Below are positions 1 to 9,136 of a DNA stretch of 9,136 bases, in pieces. Below the pieces are notes generated by a model. That model had not been told where the DNA came from. It saw only the letters and a program-made list of their open reading frames with translations, and did no database searches. The translations under genes and the position numbers were made by a program. The stretch's first letter is position 1; each line of letters opens with the position of its first letter. Source of the DNA: a virus (taxonomy: Duplodnaviria > Heunggongvirae > Uroviricota > Caudoviricetes); IMG/VR virus record IMGVR_UViG_2713896770_000016, positions 1-9,136 of that record. The stretch is one strand, 5' to 3'.

Positions 1-2138
1 TCATCGGTCATAATGGCAGACTGCGCTTCACGTGATTGCTTCAGCCACCATTTAATGGTGTCACGATCAATGACTCCGCCAGCAGTTTCCAGATCGATAG
101 TCTTACTAAATTCCGGTCCCATATCTCCGGTTTGCGGATCGAAAAATATTGCACCTATTGAGATAATCGGGGCATCAGGATTTTTTCCCATGGTTTCAAG
201 GTCGATCATTAGATGGTCACACGTCCTGCTGGTGGATGTGATAACACGATGACCGTTCACCGTAATTAAGGGATCTGCCGTCTCGCCAGTTTCACTATCG
301 CTGGCGTGATCCTGAGCGCTGCCAGCATTCTCCTTGTGTGGATGTTCAGCGCCTTCCATTTTCTCCGAATCGTCTTCCTGAACTTCAACCTGGTTCTTGT
401 CATCGAATGTTTCCTGGTATGTTGCGTCGCCCATCACCGCACCACAATCAGGGCAGTTGCCACCGCCGGTCTGACCGCAGGCGGTGCAGACTTTTTCCAC
501 TTCCTGTTGCGCCACTGGTTCAGGCTGTTTCGTTTCTGGCTCGTTTTGTAACGCATTTGGGCTGTTTTGTTCCGCTTTCTGGTCGTTCTGTTCCGTTTCT
601 TGCTGGTTCTGGTTCACAGAATCGCGGGTTTCAATCCCCTTCACCCATTTCGGATCATTCGGGTCGCTAATCCCTGCAACAAATTCACCACGTGATGCGG
701 CGAGCAACTGATTGGCGTCAGGCTGGCTGATATTGGCTGCCTGCATAATTTTGTTTACTTCGTCAGCGGTAACTTTTACCGGTTCTGGCTGTGCGGTCGT
801 GTCAGATGCACCAGTATTTTGTTGTGAACCTGAGTATGTACTGTTTTTGCGGGCGAAATATTCTTCTTTCGTGATTTCAGTAGCCCCGGCAGCCAGCGCC
901 TTATCCAGACCAGAAAGTTTGTTTGCGCGACCGTATTTTTCGCCATCCTTGTCGGTGAAGAGGAAGTAGAACGGCCCCTCACGCTCTACAGATGGTTCGA
1001 CTTCCACTTTGCATTCGGTTTTTTCGTTGTCCGGAATTGCCGTTTCCACTGCATCAGTTTCTGGTACTGGCGACGAGAGAGTATCAGTTGCGCTCTGATT
1101 TGTTCCTTCATCTTCAAACACGCCCTTTGTAGTCAGGTATTCAGTAATGTATTTGTTCAGTGCCACAGGATCTTTGTGAATGTCGATCGGACGTTCACGG
1201 ACAAGGCCAAAAATAGTCTGGCGGTCGTAGCGAAGGGCATCAGGCTGTTTGCGCATCGATGCCGAGATACGCTTCCAGTCTTCGCGGTCGTTGTCGATAA
1301 CTTCATTTTTTGCCCAGCGATGGATGCTGCCGTCAATGTTTCCGGCATCCACATCACCAGGCCAGAGAGCGTAGGCCAGTTCGTCATCCAGTGTTTTCCA
1401 TGTCTGCTTATATTCGCGACGAATGACTGCAGTGACAGGGGGGATTTTTTCTGCTGAGTTTTCAGTGTGCTGTCGGTGGACTCTGGCGCGGGCGAGATCA
1501 ACAACAGACGTGTATTTTCCGGTTTCCTTGCGTTCACCTTCGCGACGTTTTTTCCAGATGCGCATTTCTGCCTGAATTTCGGGCCATTTGGCACCAGGCT
1601 TACATTTATGCTTAACCCACCCGATGGCATGCAGCTTAAGCTCCGGATACATGGCGTTAACTTCTGGCATTTTCATCAACGCTTCAACGATATGTCCGTC
1701 GAATGTTGCCATGTCTTCCTGCAACAATTCCTGCGCGCTAATCACCATATCAACGGTGATGTTTTCACATGTGTCGAACTTAACCATGACAGCGTTCTGT
1801 ACTTCAAGGGACAGTTTGTCAAAATTGACGTTCATCGGTTCGGATTCTGGTTCGACCGGAATAAAGGAAGCGGATTCCTCATCCCAGCGGTTTTCCTGCA
1901 TATATTCGGTATCCCAGGAGTCGATAGCAGGGCGGGGCATGCCGGGTTTATCCTCGCAGATAAGAAATTTATAAGCGCAGTCCTGAGCAGCCGGATATTG
2001 CTCCAGGAATTGCCAGGTAAATTTGGCACGGGCGCGGCGTTCGTCGCCAGCTTCAATGGCAGTGGCTACAGCAACTGCACCTTCTTCCTTTATTGCCTGT
2101 TCGTCCGGAATGGCGGCGCAAATAAAGACTTTACTCAT
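1..2138 (-). CDS. recE: RecE-like exodeoxyribonuclease VIII family protein, N-terminal ~712 codons; 3' end runs off the left edge of the window
   Basis: Minus-strand frame opens at ATG 2138-2136 (MSKVFICAAIPDE...) and stayed open in the stretches hand-checked (1-300, 1440-1500, 2100-2138). It is absent from the ORF track, consistent with having no in-window stop. The plus strand over the same span holds only short, mutually tiling shadow ORFs. GAGG lies about 10 nt upstream of the ATG. An internal segment ...LLAASRGEFVAGISDPNDPKWVKGIETRD... resembles what I recall of Rac RecE. No search was run. Confidence 0.7.
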   Translation of the reverse strand, partial: MSKVFICAAIPDEQAIKEEGAVAVATAIEAGDERRARAKFTWQFLEQYPAAQDCAYKFLICEDKPGMPRPAIDSWDTEYMQENRWDEESASFIPVEPESEPMNVNFDKLSLEVQNAVMVKFDTCENITVDMVISAQELLQEDMATFDGHIVEALMKMPEVNAMYPELKLHAIGWVKHKCKPGAKWPEIQAEMRIWKKRREGERKETGKYTSVVDLARARVHRQHTENSAEKIPPVTAVIRREYKQTWKTLDDELAYALWPGDVDAGNIDGSIHRWAKNEVIDNDREDWKRISASMRKQPDALRYDRQTIFGLVRERPIDIHKDPVALNKYITEYLTTKGVFEDEGTNQSATDTLSSPVPETDAVETAIPDNEKTECKVEVEPSVEREGPFYFLFTDKDGEKYGRANKLSGLDKALAAGATEITKEEYFARKNSTYSGSQQNTGASDTTAQPEPVKVTADEVNKIMQAANISQPDANQLLAASRGEFVAGISDPNDPKWVKGIETRDSVNQNQQETEQNDQKAEQNSPNALQNEPETKQPEPVAQQEVEKVCTACGQTGGGNCPDCGAVMGDATYQETFDDKNQVEVQEDDSEKMEGAEHPHKENAGSAQDHASDSETGETADPLITVNGHRVITSTSRTCDHLMIDLETMGKNPDAPIISIGAIFFDPQTGDMGPEFSKTIDLETAGGVIDRDTIKWWLKQSREAQSAIMTD

Positions 2139-2261
2139 TTTGTTTTAACCTCATGACAGATTTAAGGATGAACAAATCCCTGCCATTGCTGGCATATAAG
2201 AATCAAATCTGATGTATTCATTAAGCTGAATGTCGTATTGTGGCAGTTATTTTATTACTGC

Positions 2262-2483
2262 TCACCATGACTCTGCTTTTACAGGTAAACCATCACGACC
2301 AAGGAAGACTTTAATCATGGTTTCCTTAATACAGTGTTGTGTGGAAAAATCACGAATATAGAGCCGTTGTTTTTTAATGTTGTTTACCGAAGCAATATAT
2401 GTTCTTCCTTTATGAATAACATAATCACCGGGAGTCACGCACTGACGAGGAATCTCATCAGTTCCGAAGTGATGAGCAATCAT
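2262..2483 (-). CDS. kilR: KilR-like small protein (73 aa), putative cell-division inhibitor
   Basis: Track ORF 2262..2495 (77 aa). The internal ATG at 2483 is preferred because GGAG sits 6 nt upstream of it, whereas the 2495 ATG has no SD. The product [22 protein letters not shown]... is 73 aa, the length of Rac KilR, and lies immediately upstream of recE-like in the same orientation. The name rests on recalled similarity, not alignment. Confidence 0.5.
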
Positions 2484-2657
2484 AATTATCTCCATTTTTA
2501 CAAATGAACTTTGTTGATGCGGTGCCTGGTGCCTCCAGGTGACGTTAACCAGTTAACAATTAACGCCGGATACAGAGAACCCACCCATAACACTGTTTTT
2601 GGTTTTAACTGTTCCGCGTGCGCTCAGCCGCATTCACCGCATCACAAAACTCACTTT

Positions 2658-2715
2658 AAAAAGGGCGGCAGACCAGTCACGGAGTAAAACTGATACCGCC
2701 AAACGTCACCAGAAA
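2658..2715 (-). ncRNA. dicF: DicF-type sRNA (prophage-encoded, ftsZ-targeting family)
   Basis: Minus strand reads TTTCTGGTGACGTTTGGCGGTATCAGTTTTACTCCGTGACTGGTCTGCCGCCC followed by TTTTT. This matches the 53-nt E. coli DicF RNA as I recall it, apart from about 1 nt. It has a GC-rich 3' stem plus U-tail and occupies the same operon position as in Qin (after the ydfC-like gene, about 175 bp before the next gene). Confidence 0.7.
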
Positions 2716-3056
2716 ATTGATAACAGAGGGCGTTGCAGCGGGGTTGTCACTTAAGCGTATGGTCAACCTGACAACCCGGTGTCCTCAACGGGGGAAGGAA
2801 TAACCCCGCCATACTTACCGCCGCGCCATTTCGCGGATTGCCACAACCGGAAGCGCACGGTCGACGAAAATTTAACGACAGGCTATCTATGAACCAGCTA
2901 CCTCGCCGTGCGCTTTCGCGTTATGGTCTGACTTTTCAGGGAAATATCCTTTCAGTAAACTGTCAGTGCCGGATGCTCACCCGTGTCCGGCGCAAGCACT
3001 CCACCTCACCCGTGGAGAACTCCTTAATTACCAACCTTAGCTTCGTTGGTTAGCTA

Positions 3057-3275
3057 TTAACGCGGGTATGTAATCATTCTGGCAATGGTTAATGCCGCTG
3101 CTTTTTCCAGATTGGTGATATCCTGCTCCAGAGAGGACAGATTTTCAGCCTGCTTAGCCCTGACTTCATTAGCCCATTTCAGATCCTGCGCTGCATTAAT
3201 TTTCTGGTGCATCCACTCATAAAGTTCATCATTGGTATAGTCTGGCGCGATGATGACGGGTTCTCGTTTCTGCAT
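3057..3275 (-). CDS. YdfC-like small prophage protein (72 aa), function unknown
   Basis: Track ORF of 72 aa with GAGG 5 nt upstream of the ATG at 3275. Its size and position (third small gene after the repressor, before dicF) match ydfC of the Qin dicB operon. The sequence looks coiled-coil-like. Identity is inferred from context and length only. Confidence 0.5.
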   Translation of the reverse strand: MQKREPVIIAPDYTNDELYEWMHQKINAAQDLKWANEVRAKQAENLSSLEQDITNLEKAAALTIARMITYPR

Positions 3276-3304
3276 ACTGATTCCTCGCGGTGCTGTTTCG
3301 CTTA

Positions 3305-3433
3305 TCAGCCATTAGATTTTGCCGAACTGGAAAGCACCTGTTTAAATTCGTTGAAGCTGTGAGCTTCTTCGCCTTCGGCAAGGCCTTCGAAGTATTCTTC
3401 GTAAGCCTTTTCCATGATTGTGTCGAAATCCAT
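3305..3433 (-). CDS. YdfB/YdaG-like small prophage protein (42 aa)
   Basis: Hand-translated MDFDTIMEKAYEEYFEGLAEGEEAHSFNEFKQVLSSSAKSNG, with stop TGA at 3307-3305. The ATG at 3433 lies 1 nt after the stop of the upstream gene, suggesting translational coupling. The 42-aa acidic product matches the ydfB/ydaG family in size. The overlapping 69-aa track ORF 3229..3438 in another frame was rejected. Confidence 0.6.
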   Translation of the reverse strand: MDFDTIMEKAYEEYFEGLAEGEEAHSFNEFKQVLSSSAKSNG

Positions 3434-3434
3434 A

Positions 3435-3590
3435 TCACCCACCTGAATTTCTTTCCAGCCAGCGACGCGCTCCAGATTCGGTTTTAAACGTTTTGCTTTT
3501 GGTATACGTCATTGCGGTGAACGTACCGTACTGGTTGGGGAACACGCCACATACCAGAGATTCGCTGTTGCCAAGATCGATAGTATCCAT
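3435..3590 (-). CDS. YdfA/YdaF-like small prophage protein (51 aa)
   Basis: Part of track ORF 3435..3671. The internal ATG at 3590 has GAGG 5 nt upstream and gives MDTIDLGNSESLVCGVFPNQYGTFTAMTYTKSKTFKTESGARRWLERNSGG (51 aa, the size of YdfA/YdaF). A 78-aa version starting at 3671 is an alternative, also with a GAGG upstream. Confidence 0.6.
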   Translation of the reverse strand: MDTIDLGNSESLVCGVFPNQYGTFTAMTYTKSKTFKTESGARRWLERNSGG

Positions 3591-3775
3591 GCTGACCTCA
3601 TTTCCCCTTAACGCCGGGGTAGCGGAACAAAAACCTGCTGCATAGTTATTAAAGTTGAACCCTGCCGTCATGTTCTTACGCCTCGGGCTGGCTACTTAAC
3701 CCCTGACCACTGCCTGGTAACTCGAAGTATTGCCCTGCATTCTGTGGGGCGGGGTGGGTTGGTATGAAAAGAAGG

Positions 3776-3814
3776 ATACCCATAGGTATTTAAAAAGTAA
3801 ATACCCATGGGTAA
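3776..3814. promoter_or_regulatory. Operator pair downstream of the repressor gene (OL-like), probable control region of the leftward early operon
   Basis: Two 14-bp dyads: ATACC-CATA-GGTAT (3776-3789) and ATACC-CATG-GGTAA (3801-3814), centres 25 bp apart. The second contains the perfect 12-bp palindrome TACCCATGGGTA. They share the half-site with the operators at 4295-4347. Confidence 0.5.
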
Positions 3815-3855
3815 ATTTTTGCGGTGTCTTAACTGGTGACTAGTTGTTTGGTGAG

Positions 3856-4275
3856 CTATGATGCGTTTTGTGCTTTCTTTTTACGGATTTCTTCGTAGAT
3901 CATATTGTAATACTGTTTTTTCTCTTCAAGAGTTTTTAATAATTTATCCGCTTCACTTTCTGGCAGTTCGTCTAAGAGATCTAAAAAAATACGTTGTCGT
4001 GGCGTTAGAACCCTTGTTTCATAACTGGAGGCTGTGTTCGTTGATGATGAAACGATACCATCCATCCATCCCCGGGGTAACCCAAAGGACTCTTCGATAA
4101 TCTCCACCATATCATCAGCGATCCGTTTTTTTCCCTTTTTCCCCTCTGGGTACAACATTCTTGATACATAAGAAGGCTCGCGCCCGATCTTTCTGGCCAC
4201 GTTAACCGCTTTACCATCGCATTTCTCATCACGAATTTTGATGAGTTGCTGTCGTCTAAATTCATATTTGTCCAT
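3856..4275 (-). CDS. Prophage repressor, DicA/RacR-like HTH protein (139 aa)
   Basis: Track ORF. The N-terminal region has an HTH-like segment GKAVNVARKIGREPSYVSRML. The C-terminal LTPRQRIFLDLLDELPESEADKLL resembles the DicA C-terminus as recalled. It is divergent from a cro-like gene and flanked by palindromic operators. No SD precedes the ATG, so the mRNA may be leaderless. Confidence 0.8.
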   Translation of the reverse strand: MDKYEFRRQQLIKIRDEKCDGKAVNVARKIGREPSYVSRMLYPEGKKGKKRIADDMVEIIEESFGLPRGWMDGIVSSSTNTASSYETRVLTPRQRIFLDLLDELPESEADKLLKTLEEKKQYYNMIYEEIRKKKAQNAS

Positions 4276-4350
4276 AGGTAAATAATAGATGCGATTACCG
4301 CAAGGTAAACAACCTGTGGGTATTGACTTTTGTTTACCTGTGGGTATTCT
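4268..4350. promoter_or_regulatory. Divergent promoter/operator region (OR-like) between the repressor and cro-like genes
   Basis: Operators TTACC-GCAA-GGTAA (4295-4308), cAACC-TGTG-GGTAT (4310-4323) and TTACC-TGTG-GGTAT (4334-4347), plus a degenerate copy over the repressor start (4268-4281). Rightward promoter candidate: -35 TTGACT 4323-4328, 16-bp spacer, -10 TATTCT 4345-4350. Leftward candidate: -35 TTTACC (complement of 4304-4309), 16-bp spacer, -10 TATTAT (complement of 4282-4287), ending about 6 nt before the repressor ATG. Confidence 0.5.
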
Positions 4351-4375
4351 TTGCTGTGTTTACTAAGGAGTAGCT

Positions 4376-4657
4376 ATGGAAGAATTAAGAATATTTCTCA
4401 ATTCTCTTTCGTCAGATGAACAGCGTATGTTTGCATGCGAGTGTGGTACCAGCATCGGTTATCTAAGAAAGGCATTGAGTAAAGGTCAAGTGTTAGGGGC
4501 ATCGTTATGTGTCCTTATTGAGCGAGCCAGTAATGGTGAAGTTACACGTCAGCAACTAAGGCCTTTTGATTGGATGAATATTTGGCCCGAGCTGGAAGAT
4601 ACCAAAACGTTAACACAACCACTTTCTAGGAGCTTGATTCATGAAAATCAAGCATGA
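4376..4657 (+). CDS. Cro-like regulator, YdaS family (93 aa)
   Basis: Track ORF with AAGGAG 5 nt upstream of the ATG. HTH-like segment CGTSIGYLRKALSKGQ...ASLCVLIERASNGEVT. It is the first gene of the rightward operon, divergent from the repressor. Confidence 0.8.
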   Translation: MEELRIFLNSLSSDEQRMFACECGTSIGYLRKALSKGQVLGASLCVLIERASNGEVTRQQLRPFDWMNIWPELEDTKTLTQPLSRSLIHENQA

Positions 4658-5066
4658 ACACATCCGCATGGCGATGAATGCCTGGGCGCGTCCTGATGGC
4701 GAAAAAGTTCCAGCAGCTGGAATAACCCAGGCTTATTTTGAGTTGGGTATGACGTTCCCAGAACTGTATGACGACAGCCATCCGGAAGCCCTGGCTCGCA
4801 ATACCCAGAAAATTTTCCGCTGGGTAGAGAAAGACACCCCTGATGCTGTTGAAAAAATGCAGGCTCTGTTACCGGCGATCGAAAAGGCGATGCCGCCTTT
4901 GCTGGTGGCCCGTATGCGCAGCCACAGTTCTGAATATTACCGTGAGATCGTCGAACGGAGGGATCGGCTGGTGAAGGATGTCGATGATTTTGTTGCGTCA
5001 GCGGTTGTTTTGTATGACCAGATGAATCGCGGCGGCCCGGCAGGGAATGCTGTGGTGATGCACTAA
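4641..5066 (+). CDS. YdaT-family protein (141 aa), CII-like position
   Basis: Track ORF with AGGAG 8 nt upstream. It starts MKIKHEHI like Rac YdaT as recalled and is about the same length. It overlaps the preceding gene by 17 nt. Confidence 0.8.
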   Translation: MKIKHEHIRMAMNAWARPDGEKVPAAGITQAYFELGMTFPELYDDSHPEALARNTQKIFRWVEKDTPDAVEKMQALLPAIEKAMPPLLVARMRSHSSEYYREIVERRDRLVKDVDDFVASAVVLYDQMNRGGPAGNAVVMH

Positions 5067-5088
5067 AAGCACGGTGTTCGGGGGTTTT

Positions 5089-6051
5089 ATGAGCAGCAAG
5101 CTTCATGGTCTTGTCTGGGAAGGGTGCGCCTTCACCGGCATGATCTTATCCAGGGTGGCGGTTATGGCCCGTCTTGCAGACTACAGCAATGACGAGGGCG
5201 TGTCATGGCCTGCCATTGAAACTATCCGGCGTCAGATCGGTGCAAGAAGTGAATCCACAGTGAAATCGGCTATTGCAGAACTGGCGAAAGAGGGCTGGCT
5301 GACGAAGGAAGAGCGTAAGGTCGGTGGGCGTAATGTAAGCAATATCTATCGGCTTAATGTGGAAAAACTCGAAGCAGCTGCGGCGGCGGCGCGTGAGTCA
5401 TATAAACCGAAAAGAAAAATTAGCCCGGCAAAAAATGACCCGTTAACAGTTGACCCGTCAAATATTGACCCCTCAACGGTTGACCCGTCAAATTTTGATG
5501 GATCAACTGTTGATAAAAAACTGCCGATTAGGGGGGCGATGATTGACCCCGATCCGTCAGTATTAAAACCTGATCCGTCAGATAAAAGATCTTCTTGTCC
5601 GGACGCTTCGCAACCGGACCCGCAGACGGCTGAACAGGATTTTTTAACCCGACACCCTGACGCGGTTGTGTTCAGTGCGAAAAAACGCCAGTGGGGAAGT
5701 CAGGAAGATTTGGTGTGCGCACAGTGGATCTGGGGACGAATCGTGAGTCTTTACGAGCAGGCGGCCAGCTATGATGGCGAGATCACTAGACCGAAAGAAC
5801 CCAACTGGACAGCATGGGCCAATGACGTTCGCACAATGCGGATGCTGGATGGCAGAACTCACAGACAAATTTGTGAAATGTTTGGGCGTCTCCAGCGGGA
5901 TTCGTTCTGGGTAAAAAACATCATGAGTCCGGCAAAACTCCGGGAAAAATGGGATGAACTGGTTATCCGCCTGGGGCGTTCGCCTGCGCAGCGTTGCGTG
6001 AATCACATTTCTGAACCGGACACTGAAATACCGCCGGGATTCAGGGGGTGA
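5089..6051 (+). CDS. Phage replication initiation protein (O-like): N-terminal winged-helix DNA-binding domain, repeat linker, DnaT-like C-terminal region
   Basis: Track ORF 5074..6051, which starts at a GTG. I prefer the in-frame ATG at 5089, preceded by a G-run, though the start is uncertain by 5 codons. The N-terminus LSRVAVMARLADYSNDEGVSWPAIETIRRQIGARSESTVKSAIAELAKEGWL is typical of phage replication-protein HTH domains. It sits directly upstream of a DnaC-like gene and carries an iteron array inside the coding sequence. Confidence 0.85.
   Translation: MSSKLHGLVWEGCAFTGMILSRVAVMARLADYSNDEGVSWPAIETIRRQIGARSESTVKSAIAELAKEGWLTKEERKVGGRNVSNIYRLNVEKLEAAAAAARESYKPKRKISPAKNDPLTVDPSNIDPSTVDPSNFDGSTVDKKLPIRGAMIDPDPSVLKPDPSDKRSSCPDASQPDPQTAEQDFLTRHPDAVVFSAKKRQWGSQEDLVCAQWIWGRIVSLYEQAASYDGEITRPKEPNWTAWANDVRTMRMLDGRTHRQICEMFGRLQRDSFWVKNIMSPAKLREKWDELVIRLGRSPAQRCVNHISEPDTEIPPGFRG
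5435..5524 (+). repeat. Iteron array (about six tandem 15-bp repeats, TTGACCCGTCAAAT-like) inside the initiator gene; putative replication origin
   Basis: Direct repeats at about 5435, 5450, 5465, 5480, 5495 and 5510, each with an internal dyad TTGAC-cc-GTCAA, followed by an A-rich tract (5513-5520). Two further related copies (GATCCGTCAG) lie at 5551-5560 and 5572-5581. In the protein they encode a DPSxx pentapeptide-repeat linker. Confidence 0.6.
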
Positions 6052-6057
6052 CGTGTC

Positions 6058-6804
6058 ATGAAAAACATTGCGGCAGTTGGGGTTCTTGAACGTATTCGCA
6101 GACTTGCACCACAGGGGTCGGTTCCACCGTACCGGACGGTGGAGGAGTGGCGGGAATGGCAACTTGCTGAAGGACGAAAACGCAGCGAGGAGATTAACCG
6201 CCAGAATCGCCAGTTGCGGGTGGAAAAAATCCTGAATCGTTCGGGCATCCAGCCTCTGCACAGCAAATGCTCGTTTGCAAATTATCAGGTGCAGAACGAC
6301 GGGCAAAAATACGCGCTGAGCCAGGCCAAATCCATAGCTGACGAACTGATGACCGGGTGCACGAATTTTGTGTTCAGTGGTAAAACCGGCACCGGGAAAA
6401 ATCACCTTGCAGCGGCGATGGGCAACCGGCTGATGGTGAAGGGGCGCAGCGTGATTATCGTCACCGTGTCTGACGTCATGAGCGTGTTGCATGACAGCTA
6501 CGACAACGGCAAATCCGGGGAAAAATTTTTACAGGAGCTTTGCGGGGTTGATTTGCTGGTCCTGGATGAAATAGGCGTTCAGCGGGAGACGAAAAACGAG
6601 CAGGTGGTATTGCACCAGATAATTGATCGCCGGACAGCATCACTGTGCAGTGTCGGGATGTTAACAAACCTGAATCATGCCGCAATGAGTACGCTTCTTG
6701 GTGAGAGGATTATGGACCGCATGACCATGAACGGTGGTCGATGGGTGACGTTTAACTGGGATAGCTGGCGTCCAAATGTCAGCAATATGAGGGTTGTGAA
6801 GTAA
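6058..6804 (+). CDS. DnaC-like helicase loader (IstB-type AAA+ ATPase), YdaV-like (248 aa)
   Basis: Track ORF with AGGGGG about 9 nt upstream. Walker A motif FSGKTGTGKNHLAAA and Walker B motif LLVLDEIG. Same length as Rac YdaV as recalled. Confidence 0.9.
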   Translation: MKNIAAVGVLERIRRLAPQGSVPPYRTVEEWREWQLAEGRKRSEEINRQNRQLRVEKILNRSGIQPLHSKCSFANYQVQNDGQKYALSQAKSIADELMTGCTNFVFSGKTGTGKNHLAAAMGNRLMVKGRSVIIVTVSDVMSVLHDSYDNGKSGEKFLQELCGVDLLVLDEIGVQRETKNEQVVLHQIIDRRTASLCSVGMLTNLNHAAMSTLLGERIMDRMTMNGGRWVTFNWDSWRPNVSNMRVVK

Positions 6805-6825
6805 TTTTGTCCGGAGGAAATTTTA

Positions 6826-7596
6826 ATGGAAACCGTATCTGACGCACTGAAAGCACTGAAAAAAGCCTCTTCACATGTGGTGGCAGCTCGCCTTGGAATC
6901 AGTCGTGAAGAGGCTGTCAACGAGCTGTGGGAACTCAAAAGAAAAGGCGTCGTTGATAAAACTGGTCACACCTGGTTTCTGGCTGGCGAAGGTGAATCCC
7001 GGGTAACCGAAGAGCGGCCAGTAAAATCTGAAGCACAGGATATGCTGACCGGGGAGGTCGAACAAAAAGTTACCGCAGACATGATGATTGAGTTTATCGG
7101 TCAGGATGGGGCTAAAACGTGTGAGGAACTGGCGGGTAAGTTCGGTGTCAGTACTCGCAAGGTTGCTTCCACGCTGGCGGTGGTAACCGCAACGGGGCGG
7201 CTGGCACGCGTTAATCAGAACGGTAAATTTCGTTACTGCATGCCGGGCGATAATTTACCAGCAGAGCCGAAAGCCGCGCTGGTAACGGAAAGTGATGGTA
7301 AGGCCTTTCCTCAGCCAGCAGGTGCTGCGTTACCAGTCCGGGAAGCCGCAACACAGGAAGAAATTAAAACAGAAACTGTGGCGGACATTGTGCAGCCGTT
7401 GCCATCGTTTACCGAAACGCAAGCAGATGAGCTGATTTTTCCGTCCCTTCGCAGGGCAAACCTGGCGCTGCGCAGGGCGAAAAGTGATGTTCAGAAGTGG
7501 GAGCGAGTCTGCGCCGCGCTGCGGGAGCTGAACAAGCACCGGGATATTGTTCGACAGATTACTGATTCTTCCCGCCGTGTTGTATCGGAAAAGTGA
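6826..7596 (+). CDS. Hypothetical protein (256 aa) with two winged-helix-like modules
   Basis: Track ORF with GGAGG 8 nt upstream. Internally duplicated 50-60 aa segments (residues about 1-55 and 83-140) of the pattern hydrophobic-x-x-L-x-x-x-G-[IV]-S-x-x-x-[VA]. The C-terminal third is basic and helical. No family was recognised with certainty. Confidence 0.7.
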   Translation: METVSDALKALKKASSHVVAARLGISREEAVNELWELKRKGVVDKTGHTWFLAGEGESRVTEERPVKSEAQDMLTGEVEQKVTADMMIEFIGQDGAKTCEELAGKFGVSTRKVASTLAVVTATGRLARVNQNGKFRYCMPGDNLPAEPKAALVTESDGKAFPQPAGAALPVREAATQEEIKTETVADIVQPLPSFTETQADELIFPSLRRANLALRRAKSDVQKWERVCAALRELNKHRDIVRQITDSSRRVVSEK

Positions 7597-7611
7597 TTGC
7601 CGGAGGCGCTT

Positions 7612-8037
7612 ATGGCAAAAGTATTTACACAAGAAGAGCGGGAAAAAATTAAAGGGCAGGTTGTTGAACTTGTACGTCTGAGCGGTCGCGAGACGTTGCG
7701 GCAACTGGAAGCCAAGACAGGTGCGACAAGATATCTGATGAGTGTTCTCGCCAGAGAGCTGGTTGCCAGTGGCGATGTATACAACTCTGGTTACGGGTTA
7801 TTCCCGTCTGAACAGGCGCGTAAGGACTGGCAAAATGCTCGCAAAAAACTCTCAAGGGCAAAGGTGAAGAAACCTGCAGTGGTTGATCCGGACCTTATCT
7901 GGTCGTTACCAGACGGCGAAATACGCCGCTACGACAGGCGCCTGAATATAATCTGTCGCGAGTGCCGGAAGAGCGAAGCTATGCAGCGTGTACTGGCATT
8001 TTATCAAGGAAATGTTAGGTATTTTAGACGTTACTAG
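7612..8037 (+). CDS. Hypothetical protein (141 aa), N-terminal winged-helix-like module, C-terminal basic region
   Basis: Track ORF 7597..8037 begins at a TTG. I prefer the ATG at 7612, which has GGAGG 5 nt upstream. It starts 16 nt after the stop of the previous gene. The N-terminus resembles the modules of the preceding protein. Confidence 0.7.
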   Translation: MAKVFTQEEREKIKGQVVELVRLSGRETLRQLEAKTGATRYLMSVLARELVASGDVYNSGYGLFPSEQARKDWQNARKKLSRAKVKKPAVVDPDLIWSLPDGEIRRYDRRLNIICRECRKSEAMQRVLAFYQGNVRYFRRY

Positions 8038-8190
8038 ATTAAAGAGCATTAGTTCAGATGTGAATTGACATTTTCATGGCGCAGGGTAGAGCCAGCGTGG
8101 TTGTCCGCTTTGCGTCAAAACCAGATATTACCAGATTTAGACATATATTCCCGATAGCCCTGCTCTGATGCTACACTCTGTGCTATTTTC

Positions 8191-8877
8191 ATGACCCCAA
8201 TAAAAATATTTATGACTATTGCTGATTTCAAACGGCCTAAATTGGAGCTCCCAAACGGGGCAAACAAACTACTACTGCACTCTTGCTGTGCTCCATGTTC
8301 CGGTGAAGTGATGGAGGCGCTTCAGGCCTCGGGAATCGACTACACCATCTTTTTCTACAACCCGAACATTCATCCTCAGAAAGAGTATTTAATTCGTAAG
8401 GATGAAAATATTCGCTTTGCTGAACAACACGGCGTGCCGTTTATCGATGCTGATTACGACACCGACAACTGGTTTGAACGTGCCAAAGGAATGGAATGGG
8501 AGCCTGAGAGGGGGATCCGTTGTACCATGTGTTTTGACATGCGTTTTGAGCGGACAGCGTTGTACGCTGCTGAAAATGGTTTCAGTGTGATCAGCAGTTC
8601 ACTGGGCATTTCACGCTGGAAAAATATGCAGCAGGTTAACGAGTGTGGGCGGCGAGCTGTTGCGCATTATCCGGGTATGGTGTACTGGGATTATAACTGG
8701 CGCAAGCAGGGCGGCTCGTCCCGTATGATTGAAATCAGCAAGCGCGAAAAATTCTATCAGCAGGAATATTGTGGCTGTGTGTATTCTCTGCGCGATACCA
8801 ATCTACACCGCAAATCTCAGGGACGCCCTCTTATCAAAATTGGCCAACTCCACTACGGAAAAGAAGAGAAGGAGTGA
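8191..8877 (+). CDS. QueH-like (DUF208-type) putative Fe-S protein, possible epoxyqueuosine reductase homologue (228 aa)
   Basis: Track ORF. N-terminal [12 protein letters not shown] followed by FFYNPNIHP, and later RCTMC and EYCGCVYS cysteine motifs. I recognise this pattern as DUF208/QueH, not confirmed by search. It follows a 153-bp intergenic region with extended -10-like TGcTACACT (8169-8177) and TGcTATTTT (8181-8189). No SD precedes the ATG. Confidence 0.75.
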
Positions 8878-9136
8878 TTTTATGGATCACCTTTCTGATT
8901 GATTTCATATTGGCGAGGTGACGTGAGTTAAGTAGAATGGCTGCGGGTGCTTGAGGCTATCTGTCTCAGGCATGAACACTGAAAGGCAGATAGAGAAAAG
9001 CCCCAGTTAACATTTCGCGTCCTGCAAGACGCTTAACATTAATCTGAGGCCCAATCTATGTCTCACAAATGTAGGTTAGCCTCTTACGTGCCGAAAGGCA
9101 AGGGGAAGCAGGCTATTGTTAACACCAAGCTGTAAT

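Follow-up and report, generated by a model that had tools for sequence, protein, structure and literature searches.

The window, the whole stretch of DNA analysed here, comprises 9,136 nucleotides of a tailed virus record (IMG/VR IMGVR_UViG_2713896770_000016, positions 1 to 9,136). Two consecutive genes of this window, here named ORF-A and ORF-B, encode proteins of 256 and 141 aa, and both reading frames were found on the same strand exactly where an earlier note on this DNA had placed them. That note had the second gene starting 16 nt after the first; the spacer between the stop of ORF-A and the start of ORF-B is 15 nt (7597-7611), hence the ATG of ORF-B begins 16 positions past the stop. ORF-A and ORF-B are genuine coding genes. 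Compared with diverged homologues, the dN/dS values across both genes are 0.11-0.39, and those of the folded modules (0.14-0.34) are lower than those of the linkers (0.6-1.2). The features of the locus are as follows.

5074-6051: O-like initiator, upstream of ORF-A
6058-6804: DnaC-like loader, between the O-like initiator and ORF-A
6813-6817, + strand: GGAGG, ribosome-binding site of ORF-A, 8 nt upstream of the ATG (direct sequence reading)
6826-7596, + strand: ORF-A, 256 aa, ATG start, DUF1627 protein
6835-6975, + strand: ORF-A aa 4-50, N-terminal three-helix module, putative winged helix (tentative)
7075-7239, + strand: ORF-A aa 84-138, central winged helix (AF2, Foldseek, hhalign)
7414-7590, + strand: ORF-A aa 197-255, long basic C-terminal helix (AF2 helices 197-237 and 239-255, pLDDT ~76-83)
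7602-7606, + strand: GGAGG, ribosome-binding site of ORF-B, within the 15-nt spacer (direct sequence reading)
7612-8037, + strand: ORF-B, 141 aa, ATG start, DUF977/Ren-like protein
7630-7803, + strand: ORF-B aa 7-64, winged helix (AF2, Foldseek, profile matches to solved winged helices)
7930-8004, + strand: ORF-B aa 107-131, C-terminal Ren signature including CxxC (alignment of homologues and lambda Ren)

The gene order in the window is O-like initiator, DnaC-like loader, ORF-A and ORF-B, and a nin-type region containing QueH, Hok, RusA and Q lies downstream of ORF-B, as read in an identical prophage. The pair occupies the ren/nin slot, in agreement with the nin-like position proposed earlier. 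A sequence scan detected neither promoter-like nor terminator-like sites between the two genes. No rexAB-like genes are visible within the window.

Family assignment

The earlier note could not assign a family to either protein, but both belong to curated ones. ORF-A matches Pfam DUF1627 (PF07789), one of the profiles that the note had suggested searching, far above threshold (328 bits, cut-off 28.1), with all 155 model positions aligned to aa 91-245, and it matches phrog_630 at 9e-133 over aa 1-252. ORF-B belongs to Pfam DUF977 (PF06163; 97.9 bits, cut-off 22.1), its aa 1-135 covering positions 1-133 of the 134 in the model, and to phrog_142, which is annotated as "Ren-like exclusion protein" (1.5e-46). 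Assignment of both proteins to well-characterised families such as Ren had been named beforehand as an outcome that would refute the note's reading, and for ORF-B assignment to Ren is the outcome obtained, as phrog_142 is also the PHROG of lambda Ren. The two proteins are 100% identical to RefSeq entries WP_000450998.1 (ORF-A) and WP_001151161.1 (ORF-B). An identical annotated ORF-A CDS is present in E. coli 4/1-1, and many E. coli genomes carry identical annotated copies of both genes.

Membership in the FaeA-like family (PF04703), also suggested earlier, did not hold (14 bits, cut-off 20.7). NinB was not among the Pfam matches of ORF-A or ORF-B, and an NCBIfam scan of the two proteins gave nothing above threshold. 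When compared with the PADLOC defence models, ORF-A produced weak, sub-threshold matches of its HTH region to Csa3/CARF-HTH (E ~1e-3), and ORF-B and Ren produced none.

ORF-B and lambda Ren

Profile and alignment comparisons show ORF-B to be homologous to, but longer than, lambda Ren (NP_040633, 96 aa). The lambda protein matches phrog_142 at 1.6e-41, and the two proteins share this PHROG. Lambda Ren itself has no Pfam DUF977 match; hhalign, however, aligns the DUF977 alignment with it (95%, E 3e-8; columns 27-129 of the query on residues 16-93 of Ren), and this match covers the winged helix as well as the C-terminal motif N-x-[IV]-x-x-E-C-R-x-S-x-x-M-x-R-V-L-A-x-Y. Within the motif, 12 of the 20 residues match between ORF-B and Ren, and seven invariant residues are common to both. 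The full signature of ORF-B reads Y-D-R-x2-N-x-I-C-x-E-C-R-x-S-x2-M-Q-R-V-L-A-F-Y, and its residues N112, E117, C118, R119, S121, M124 and R126 are invariant among homologues of 32-67% identity and lambda Ren. AF2 places a helix of only moderate confidence at 116-138. This motif, which lies outside the HTH, is the most conserved part of a protein whose dN/dS is 0.11-0.21.

The basic C-terminus with the sequence CRECRK, described earlier, was located at aa 115-120, and the C-terminal half is indeed basic; in the whole protein there are 30 Lys and Arg residues versus 17 Asp and Glu. C115 and C118 are the only cysteines of ORF-B, and both are conserved without exception across 24 DUF977 sequences, the most distant of them at 32% identity. 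Lambda Ren, in contrast, has F-x-x-C in place of CxxC, with Phe at the position of C115, and because the first Cys is missing in Ren, the C-terminal chemistry of the two proteins may differ. ORF-B exceeds Ren by 45 aa and has an additional helix (aa 67-84) as well as a linker of basic character.

Both lambda ren and ORF-B immediately follow the replication genes of the rightward early operon. In the window, however, ORF-B follows a DnaC-type loader and ORF-A, whereas lambda Ren follows P. According to a preprint, ren comes after O and P in lambda, and Ren reportedly goes with every initiator-helicase-loader module (bioRxiv 10.1101/2021.04.19.439022).

Proteins 70-96% identical to ORF-B are annotated as LygF in Rac-SA53, mEp460, POCJ13, 75/02 Stx and other records. 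LygF is a recurrent label for DUF977 proteins in phage records with no function attached, and the papers that treat it as a bacterial gene are genome announcements for Salmonella. The name derives from the Sdf region of S. Enteritidis. A literature search for LygF, DUF1627, DUF977 and Ren-like proteins retrieved no functional study.

ORF-A and YdaW of the Rac prophage

ORF-A is a full-length relative of YdaW (b1361, 186 aa), a truncated protein encoded by the Rac prophage of E. coli K-12. YdaW is a member of the ORF-A family (DUF1627, 3.6e-34; phrog_630, 2e-71), contains both HTH modules seen in ORF-A and has the same position after ydaU (initiator) and ydaV (DnaC-like). However, it fits the DUF1627 family over its first 151 aa only, continues as unrelated sequence at the Rac deletion and lacks the second linker and the C-terminal helix of ORF-A. 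The DUF977 gene is absent after ydaW in K-12 Rac.

Besides its folded modules, ORF-A contains two disordered linkers, and the dN/dS of the whole gene is 0.38-0.39. The long C-terminal helix has the lowest value within the protein (0.14) and many invariant residues, including L215, R216, R217, K219, W225, R227, C229, R233, N236 and R239. It is probably an oligomerisation or partner-binding element. The Ren family (PHROG 142) was also considered for full-length ORF-A and rejected: the C-terminus is unrelated, the alignment of ORF-A with Ren is not significant, and only the central winged helix matches (phrog_142, 3e-6 on aa 84-137).

Winged-helix modules

The earlier note recognised three copies of one small DNA-binding-like fold, two of them in ORF-A. 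Structure prediction (AF2) and Foldseek confirmed the winged-helix fold for two of the three, ORF-B aa 7-64 and ORF-A aa 84-138, both with Foldseek probabilities of ~1.0 and domain-sized matches of ~1-3 A rmsd. In ORF-B, AF2 predicts helices 7-24, 29-36 and 40-53 followed by a wing of strands 57-59 and 62-64 (pLDDT ~90), and the Foldseek matches are to MarR/GntR/ArsR/MntR/Zalpha-type domains. The central module of ORF-A consists of helices 84-94, 99-106 and 110-123 with wing strands 127-131 and 134-138 (pLDDT ~81) and matches MarR/ArsR-type domains at 1-2.7 A rmsd over ~55-65 residues. These two winged helices are homologous (shuffle z = 5.6; hhalign 92%, E 5e-7), and among five segments compared in pairwise shuffle tests only the ORF-A middle and the ORF-B N-terminus scored significantly.

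The third copy, ORF-A aa 4-50, is plausible. Its three-helix pattern is predicted by AF2 (helices 4-10, 16-23 and 27-39) at a pLDDT of 42-60 with the wing barely modelled, and its dN/dS is 0.34. The best HTH profile matches are below threshold (HTH_Crp_2, 3e-4), and the corresponding signal is higher in YdaW and the homologue from PPompW than in ORF-A, yet still sub-threshold there. Similarity to the other two modules is marginal (hhalign P 0.008 and 0.0055), with no significant pairwise score, and an internal sequence duplication within ORF-A was not demonstrable in the shuffle tests. Of the two similar modules described in ORF-A, the central one is thus confirmed and the N-terminal one tentative.

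The three-helix and beta-wing fold of the modules is common to the MarR/ArsR/GntR-type transcription factors. However, all matches of ORF-A and ORF-B to these families are below the Pfam and NCBIfam cut-offs, the ligand-binding or dimerisation domains of such regulators are absent from both proteins, and the genomic role differs. Foldseek searches against PDB and BFVD returned generic winged-helix matches only (E ~0.01) and no viral structure annotated as Ren-like; for the C-terminal parts no match was informative.

Distribution of the two genes

Among 5426 complete E. coli genomes, ORF-A-like DNA was found in 2767 and ORF-B-like DNA in 4040, and the two genes are adjacent in at least 1145. 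At the loci of the closest ORF-A relatives (96-100% identity) that leave room to see it, ORF-B is the next gene in 77 out of 77. The two-gene cassette proposed earlier is nevertheless not a fixed one: ORF-B at 98-99% identity is also found right behind the initiator where both ORF-A and a loader are absent, it directly follows DnaC in L166, and the PPompW_EH2246 record has an ORF-A homologue (~62% identity) lacking ORF-B. Co-occurrence in the phage collection points the same way, with 12 records containing both genes, 12 ORF-B only and 12 ORF-A only. ORF-A and ORF-B are independent modules which are often, but not always, adjacent. Two metagenome proteins in which ORF-A and ORF-B are fused (P0122 and P0124) were judged to be products of stop-codon loss or assembly artefacts and were rejected as natural fusions.

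At ~170 loci the gene before ORF-B is an initiator, a loader of the DnaC-like or lambda-P-like type, or ORF-A. A loader, either DnaC-like or P-like, precedes ORF-A in 122 of 124 loci. Since these loci are close relatives and partly duplicated, the gene-order rules could mirror recombination breakpoints and not function. The two initial homologue searches yielded only E. coli sequences of 84-100% identity; diverse homologues were drawn from a representative search and from one that started from the homologue in 75/02 Stx. A scan of GTDB species with a strict pattern yielded 12 loci.

Both genes belong to catalogued and very common E. coli prophage families, and PHROG already labels ORF-B as Ren-like. 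Between half and three quarters of the complete E. coli genomes contain them, and the pair has little weight as a finding. What is added here is that DUF977 has not only the winged helix but also the C-terminal signature in common with Ren, that DUF1627 bears the same type of winged helix, and that both genes strictly adjoin a replication initiator or helicase loader irrespective of the loader type. About four decades after ren was defined, these points offer concrete constructs for asking whether the ren slot encodes replication-linked counter-defence.

Possible role in phage replication

As described in the preprint on the lambda genes, ren- heteroimmune lambda grows poorly on Rex+ lysogens and its suppressors map in O and P; the growth phenotype is credited to Toothman & Herskowitz 1980 and concerns lambda ren only. 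The same source describes BACTH interactions of Ren with RexA and with RexB, the one with RexB being seen in yeast two-hybrid tests too (bioRxiv 10.1101/2021.04.19.439022). In a preprint, ydaW, which corresponds to the N-terminal 151 aa of a DUF1627 protein, is a single overexpression-screen hit, listed among prophage blockers of RcaT, the toxin of retron-Sen2. The earlier guess of a regulatory or anti-defence module fits, in its anti-defence part, with the Ren homology of ORF-B and with this hit; the cassette part was not borne out.

ORF-A and ORF-B are ordinary delayed-early genes of a Rac-like lambdoid prophage, placed in the ren slot of the rightward early operon. Their likeliest role, for which we consider the odds about even, is that of Ren-type accessories of the replication module that keep phage replication from triggering Rex-type exclusion. 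Both proteins probably act in lytic replication as small DNA- or replisome-associated accessories, like Ren. Their winged helices would touch DNA or the complex formed by the initiator, and their C-terminal helices, which are conserved, would touch a partner. As a result, phage replication would neither set off nor suffer Rex-type exclusion or abortive infection by resident prophages. Direct inhibition of the defence systems is a rather unlikely alternative, in which ORF-B neutralises RexA/RexB-type sensors and ORF-A an RcaT-type retron toxin, the winged helices being protein-binding scaffolds that work independently of DNA or the replisome. The Ren interactions with RexA and RexB and the ydaW hit agree with it, as do the PHROG category 'moron, auxiliary metabolic gene and host takeover' and the small size and early position common among anti-defence genes. 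Suppressors in O and P, on the other hand, point to replication rather than to a simple inhibitor, the gene is tightly placed beside very different replication modules, ydaW is a single screen hit, and PADLOC gave no matches beyond the weak HTH-region ones. Most winged helices belong to transcription factors. A role as conventional transcription factors at prophage or host operators, with ORF-A as a dimer of four winged helices, agrees with the fold matches to MarR-, ArsR-, GntR- and MntR-type regulators, with the appearance of YdaW in a list of predicted transcription factors of E. coli whose function is unknown (PMC9308461) and with the classification of DUF977 by Kinch et al. as a winged helix fused to Fic proteins (PMC2686095). 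Yet the genes are inside a lytic early operon and have no promoter of their own, and no candidate operator repeats or palindromes were found near them, the notable repeats being the origin iterons (5415-5511) and the cI/cro operators only. Furthermore, conservation in ORF-B culminates outside the HTH, and in sequence the protein resembles solved winged helices only weakly, with Zalpha as the best match (E 6e-4). ORF-A and ORF-B are probably not classical operator-binding transcription factors, and we rate this role as improbable, much as that of direct inhibitors.

The idea of an obligate two-subunit regulatory cassette, which takes up the two-gene cassette of the earlier note and has ORF-A and ORF-B work only together as a heteromer, can draw on the adjacency in E. 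coli genomes, complete at the closest ORF-A loci, and on the homologous winged helix of the two proteins. It is largely refuted by the occurrence of each gene without the other, and lambda has Ren alone; we hold it to be very unlikely. Still further from likely, and close to negligible, is the binding of left-handed or unusual nucleic acid at the phage origin by Zalpha-like domains. At the sequence level, the DUF977 profile finds its best PDB matches in Zalpha domains (4kmf/2rvc of PKZ at E 6e-4, as well as 4lb5 and 5j6x), 4kmf_A superposes closely on ORF-B (rmsd 1.5 A, target TM 0.79), and the N module of ORF-A resembles the poxvirus E3L Zalpha including the wing Trp-Phe, although not significantly (E 0.27). 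Zalpha domains make their contacts through Lys, Asn and Tyr of helix 3 and Pro-Pro-x-Trp of the wing. By our reading of the alignment with PKZ Zalpha, the helix-3 contact positions are Arg, Ser and Arg in ORF-B, and by our reading of the E3L alignment the N module of ORF-A has Val at the Asn position and Gly-His for Pro-Pro. MarR and ArsR domains fit equally well by fold, and the Pfam z-alpha model gave no match at E <= 1. Membership in the Zalpha family was rejected on the grounds that the contact residues are not conserved.

A bolder reading, for which we see only a slim chance, has DUF1627 and DUF977 as paralogous branches of a Ren superfamily of replication-linked anti-Abi proteins. ORF-B would then act against RexAB-type exclusion, possibly as a dimer formed through a Rad50-hook-like zinc site of inter-subunit CxxC motifs, and ORF-A against retron-type (RcaT) toxins. 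If true, lambdoid phages would carry modular, stackable replication-linked anti-Abi genes in the ren slot.

Genomic context

The window is the early region of a Rac-like lambdoid prophage, in which the following features were delineated:

3-2144, minus: RecE-like exonuclease ORF, at least 714 codons, running off the left end
2262-2495, minus: Kil-like gene (septation inhibitor), phrog_294 at 2.6e-34
3856-4275, minus: 139-aa protein at the repressor position, phrog_5736 "transcriptional regulator"
4376-4657: YdaS/Cro-like gene
4641-5066: YdaT/CII-like gene
5074-6051: O-like initiator
6058-6804: DnaC-like helicase loader
6826-7596, plus: ORF-A, 256 aa
7612-8037, plus: ORF-B, 141 aa, ATG start
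8191-8877: QueH (epoxyqueuosine reductase) gene, PF02677 at 1e-65, in the nin-type region directly after ORF-B

The RecE-like frame, identified by the "exonuclease" CDS at the corresponding place in Escherichia coli strain 4/1-1, and the Kil-like gene together confirm a Rac-type early-left region. The 139-aa repressor had no Pfam match at E <= 1, phrog_5736 being its sole family match. The otherwise identical prophage of strain 4/1-1 encodes a different, LexA-family repressor at this position, which shows mosaicism of the immunity region. The divergent interval separating the repressor from the cro-like gene contains two exact copies of ACCTGTGGGTATT, 24 nt apart, and a 20-nt inverted repeat (4293-4349); these repeats are probably the immunity operators. 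Within the O-like gene, TTGACCC(G/C)T-type iterons recur with 15-bp spacing (5415-5511), and a 33-nt imperfect inverted repeat overlaps them. By analogy with lambda, whose ori likewise lies inside O, this array very probably serves as the origin of phage replication.

An earlier note had described ORF-A and ORF-B as two coupled genes in a nin-like position. What the note observed is real and for the most part accurate, and the position, after the initiator and loader and before QueH, is also right. The ORF-A TGA and the ORF-B ATG are separated by 15 nt, and each ORF is preceded by a properly spaced GGAGG. In 6600-8400, neither promoter-like nor terminator-like sites were found, so the two genes are most simply regarded as belonging to the rightward early operon. 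Purifying selection acts on both, with dN/dS of 0.11-0.39 against homologues at 60-92% amino acid identity; in ORF-A the predicted folded parts are more constrained (0.14-0.34) than the linkers (0.6-1.2).

Family assignment and distribution

Although the note had assigned no family, both proteins belong to described ones. With 328 bits against a cut-off of 28.1, ORF-A is assigned to Pfam DUF1627 as a full-length member, and it also belongs to phrog_630; ORF-B belongs to DUF977 (97.9 bits, cut-off 22.1) and to phrog_142, "Ren-like exclusion protein" (1.5e-46). Many E. coli chromosomes, such as that of strain 4/1-1, where the prophage adjoins ompW, carry CDS pairs annotated as "DUF1627 domain-containing protein" and "DUF977 family protein" that are 100% identical to the 1212-bp two-gene segment. 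Phage records name ORF-A "YdaW family" and ORF-B "LygF", a label without function. In the K-12 Rac prophage, YdaW (186 aa) shares only its first 151 aa with the DUF1627 family, diverges thereafter, and is thus a truncated copy.

Among 5426 complete E. coli genomes, ORF-A-like DNA is present in 2767 (up to nine places per genome) and ORF-B-like DNA in 4040 (up to five); 1145 genomes have at least 80% of the two-gene query in one place. Both proteins were catalogued before and are extremely common, and the finding is an ordinary one. The distribution of the family is narrow. A full HMMER pass with ORF-B over 1.84 billion cluster representatives gave only 102 clusters, many of them fragments and about a dozen full-length (32-67% identity), and a GTDB scan of one genome per species with a strict search pattern returned only Escherichia, Shigella, one Enterobacter and MAG contigs, the last probably contamination. 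Near-identical E. coli-type copies in three loci from MAGs labelled Collinsella and Veillonella parvula (L162, L163, L165), and another at 84% nucleotide identity in the "Actinobacillus phage vB_Apl-pPE4" record (PP818812.1), appear to stem from binning contamination or wrong host assignment.

Predicted structures and relationship to lambda Ren

AlphaFold2, given a 24-sequence alignment, predicted for ORF-B a confident winged helix at aa 7-64 (pLDDT about 90), an extra helix at 67-84, a basic linker at low confidence and a C-terminal helix at 116-138 at moderate confidence. In the ORF-A model (46 sequences, 53-95% identity), residues 84-138 form a winged helix (pLDDT about 81) and residues 197-255 a long C-terminal helix (about 76-83); two stretches (41-79 and 143-206) are of low confidence and probably disordered, and the N-terminal three-helix module at 4-39 has a pLDDT of only 42-60. 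The DUF977 family was already classed as a winged helix by Kinch et al. (2009; PMC2686095).

The central module of ORF-A and the N-terminus of ORF-B are homologous (shuffle z = 5.6; hhalign 92%, E 5e-7), and phrog_142 itself matches ORF-A aa 84-137 at 3e-6. The N-terminal module of ORF-A shows only marginal similarity to the other two (hhalign P 0.008 and 0.0055, with the HTH aligned in register), and has repeated sub-threshold HTH matches that are stronger in YdaW and the PPompW homologue. On this module-by-module evidence from AlphaFold2/Foldseek and hhalign, the proposed three copies of one fold hold for two modules and are plausible for the third.

ORF-B is a homologue of lambda Ren (96 aa), which matches the same phrog_142 at 1.6e-41. 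BLASTP aligned NIICRECRKSEAMQRVLAFY of ORF-B with NLVFKECRQSAAMKRVLAVY of Ren (12/20 identities), and hhalign of the 24-sequence DUF977 alignment against Ren gave 95% probability (E 3e-8) across both winged helix and C-terminal motif; DUF977 has an insertion of approximately 45 residues. Residues N112, E117, C118, R119, S121, M124 and R126 are invariant in Ren and in ORF-B homologues down to 32% identity, whereas C115, the leading Cys of the CxxC and invariant within DUF977, is Phe in Ren.

Pairing and gene order

The suggested two-gene cassette did not stand, as each gene is found without the other, and ORF-A and ORF-B are no obligate pair. By tblastn, each protein was detected in 24 records of the GenBank phage collection: 12 with both, 12 with ORF-B only and 12 with ORF-A only. 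In IMG/VR, ORF-B follows the closest ORF-A relatives in 77 of the 77 loci with room for it. The 80 ORF-B relatives closest to the window's (92-100% identity) comprise 47 with ORF-A upstream, 27 without it, and six too near a contig end to judge. An O-like initiator lies directly 5' of ORF-B in these 27 loci. In four of them it is essentially identical to that of the window, so that these loci lack DnaC-like gene and ORF-A jointly; loader and DUF1627 gene thus behave as one insertion/deletion module. At the place of window 6052-7611, one such locus (L029) runs from O straight to ORF-B over a 40-nt spacer, with neither loader nor ORF-A, and in relatives of this type ORF-B starts with GTG.

Gene orders in about 170 fetched loci, which are non-independent, some contigs having been fetched twice (O, initiator; P-like, lambda-P-like loader; DnaC, DnaC-like loader; A and B, ORF-A and ORF-B homologues)
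O, DnaC, A, B: about 100 loci
O, P-like, A, B: 18 loci
O, P-like, A: 1 locus (PPompW_EH2246)
O, B: about 40 loci
DnaC, B: 4 loci
Lambda-P-like, B: 1 locus

In 122/124 loci the gene preceding ORF-A encodes a helicase loader, of one or the other of two unrelated types, and in the fetched loci ORF-A never directly follows a recognised initiator. In PPompW_EH2246 (L005), as in PPompW phages, the DUF1627 homologue is preceded by a 140-aa protein (3045-3464) matching the C-terminal part of lambda P only (PF06992 at 1e-15, model positions 61-161), a short P-like loader beside a DnaT-domain initiator. Two single metagenome proteins (P0122, 403 aa; P0124, 372 aa) contain DUF1627 and DUF977 with 100% identity to ORF-A. 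P0122 is as long as ORF-A and ORF-B joined by in-frame readthrough of stop codon and spacer; both proteins, from one contig each, are probably stop-codon losses or assembly errors.

Putative function

Identity, fold and position of ORF-A and ORF-B are established here, and we infer their role from lambda. According to the supplement of Thomason et al. (bioRxiv 10.1101/2021.04.19.439022), lambda ren overlaps O and P and is co-translated with both, and two-hybrid assays reported there gave RexB-Ren and RexA-Ren interactions. As cited in the same preprint, a ren gene is present in all initiator-helicase-loader modules (Weigel and Seitz), heteroimmune ren- phages show poor growth on Rex+ lysogens, and suppressors of ren- map to O and P (Toothman and Herskowitz). 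Since the gene-order rules fit this picture, the most likely role is that of a Ren-type accessory of the replication module, which would keep phage replication from triggering Rex-type exclusion or falling victim to it. The winged helix would contact either DNA or the initiator complex; the C-terminal helix, which is conserved, would contact a partner.

Other explanations have to be weighed against this one. The proteins might be ordinary transcription factors or, much less probably, Zalpha-like binders; Foldseek searches of the PDB with both models returned MarR, ArsR, GntR, MntR, Zalpha and RPC62, that is, generic winged helices (E about 0.01-0.07; domain-sized matches at high probability, rmsd 1-3 Å over 55-70 residues), and comparison with BFVD added nothing to these. 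An obligate heteromer is improbable; it would agree with the constant presence of ORF-B after the closest ORF-A relatives and has against it the records carrying either gene without the other. Direct inhibition of a defence protein is a further alternative, and the anti-defence role guessed in the earlier note is plausible. A separate preprint lists ydaW among the prophage "blockers" of the retron-Sen2 toxin RcaT, as a hit in an overexpression screen whose description leaves it unstated whether ydaW belongs to the validated hits, and this is the only functional hint for ORF-A in the sources consulted. The Ren-type replication accessory is the reading we prefer.

The QueH gene recurs 3' of ORF-B in many related loci with varying upstream context, and may be a phage-borne tRNA-modification moron.
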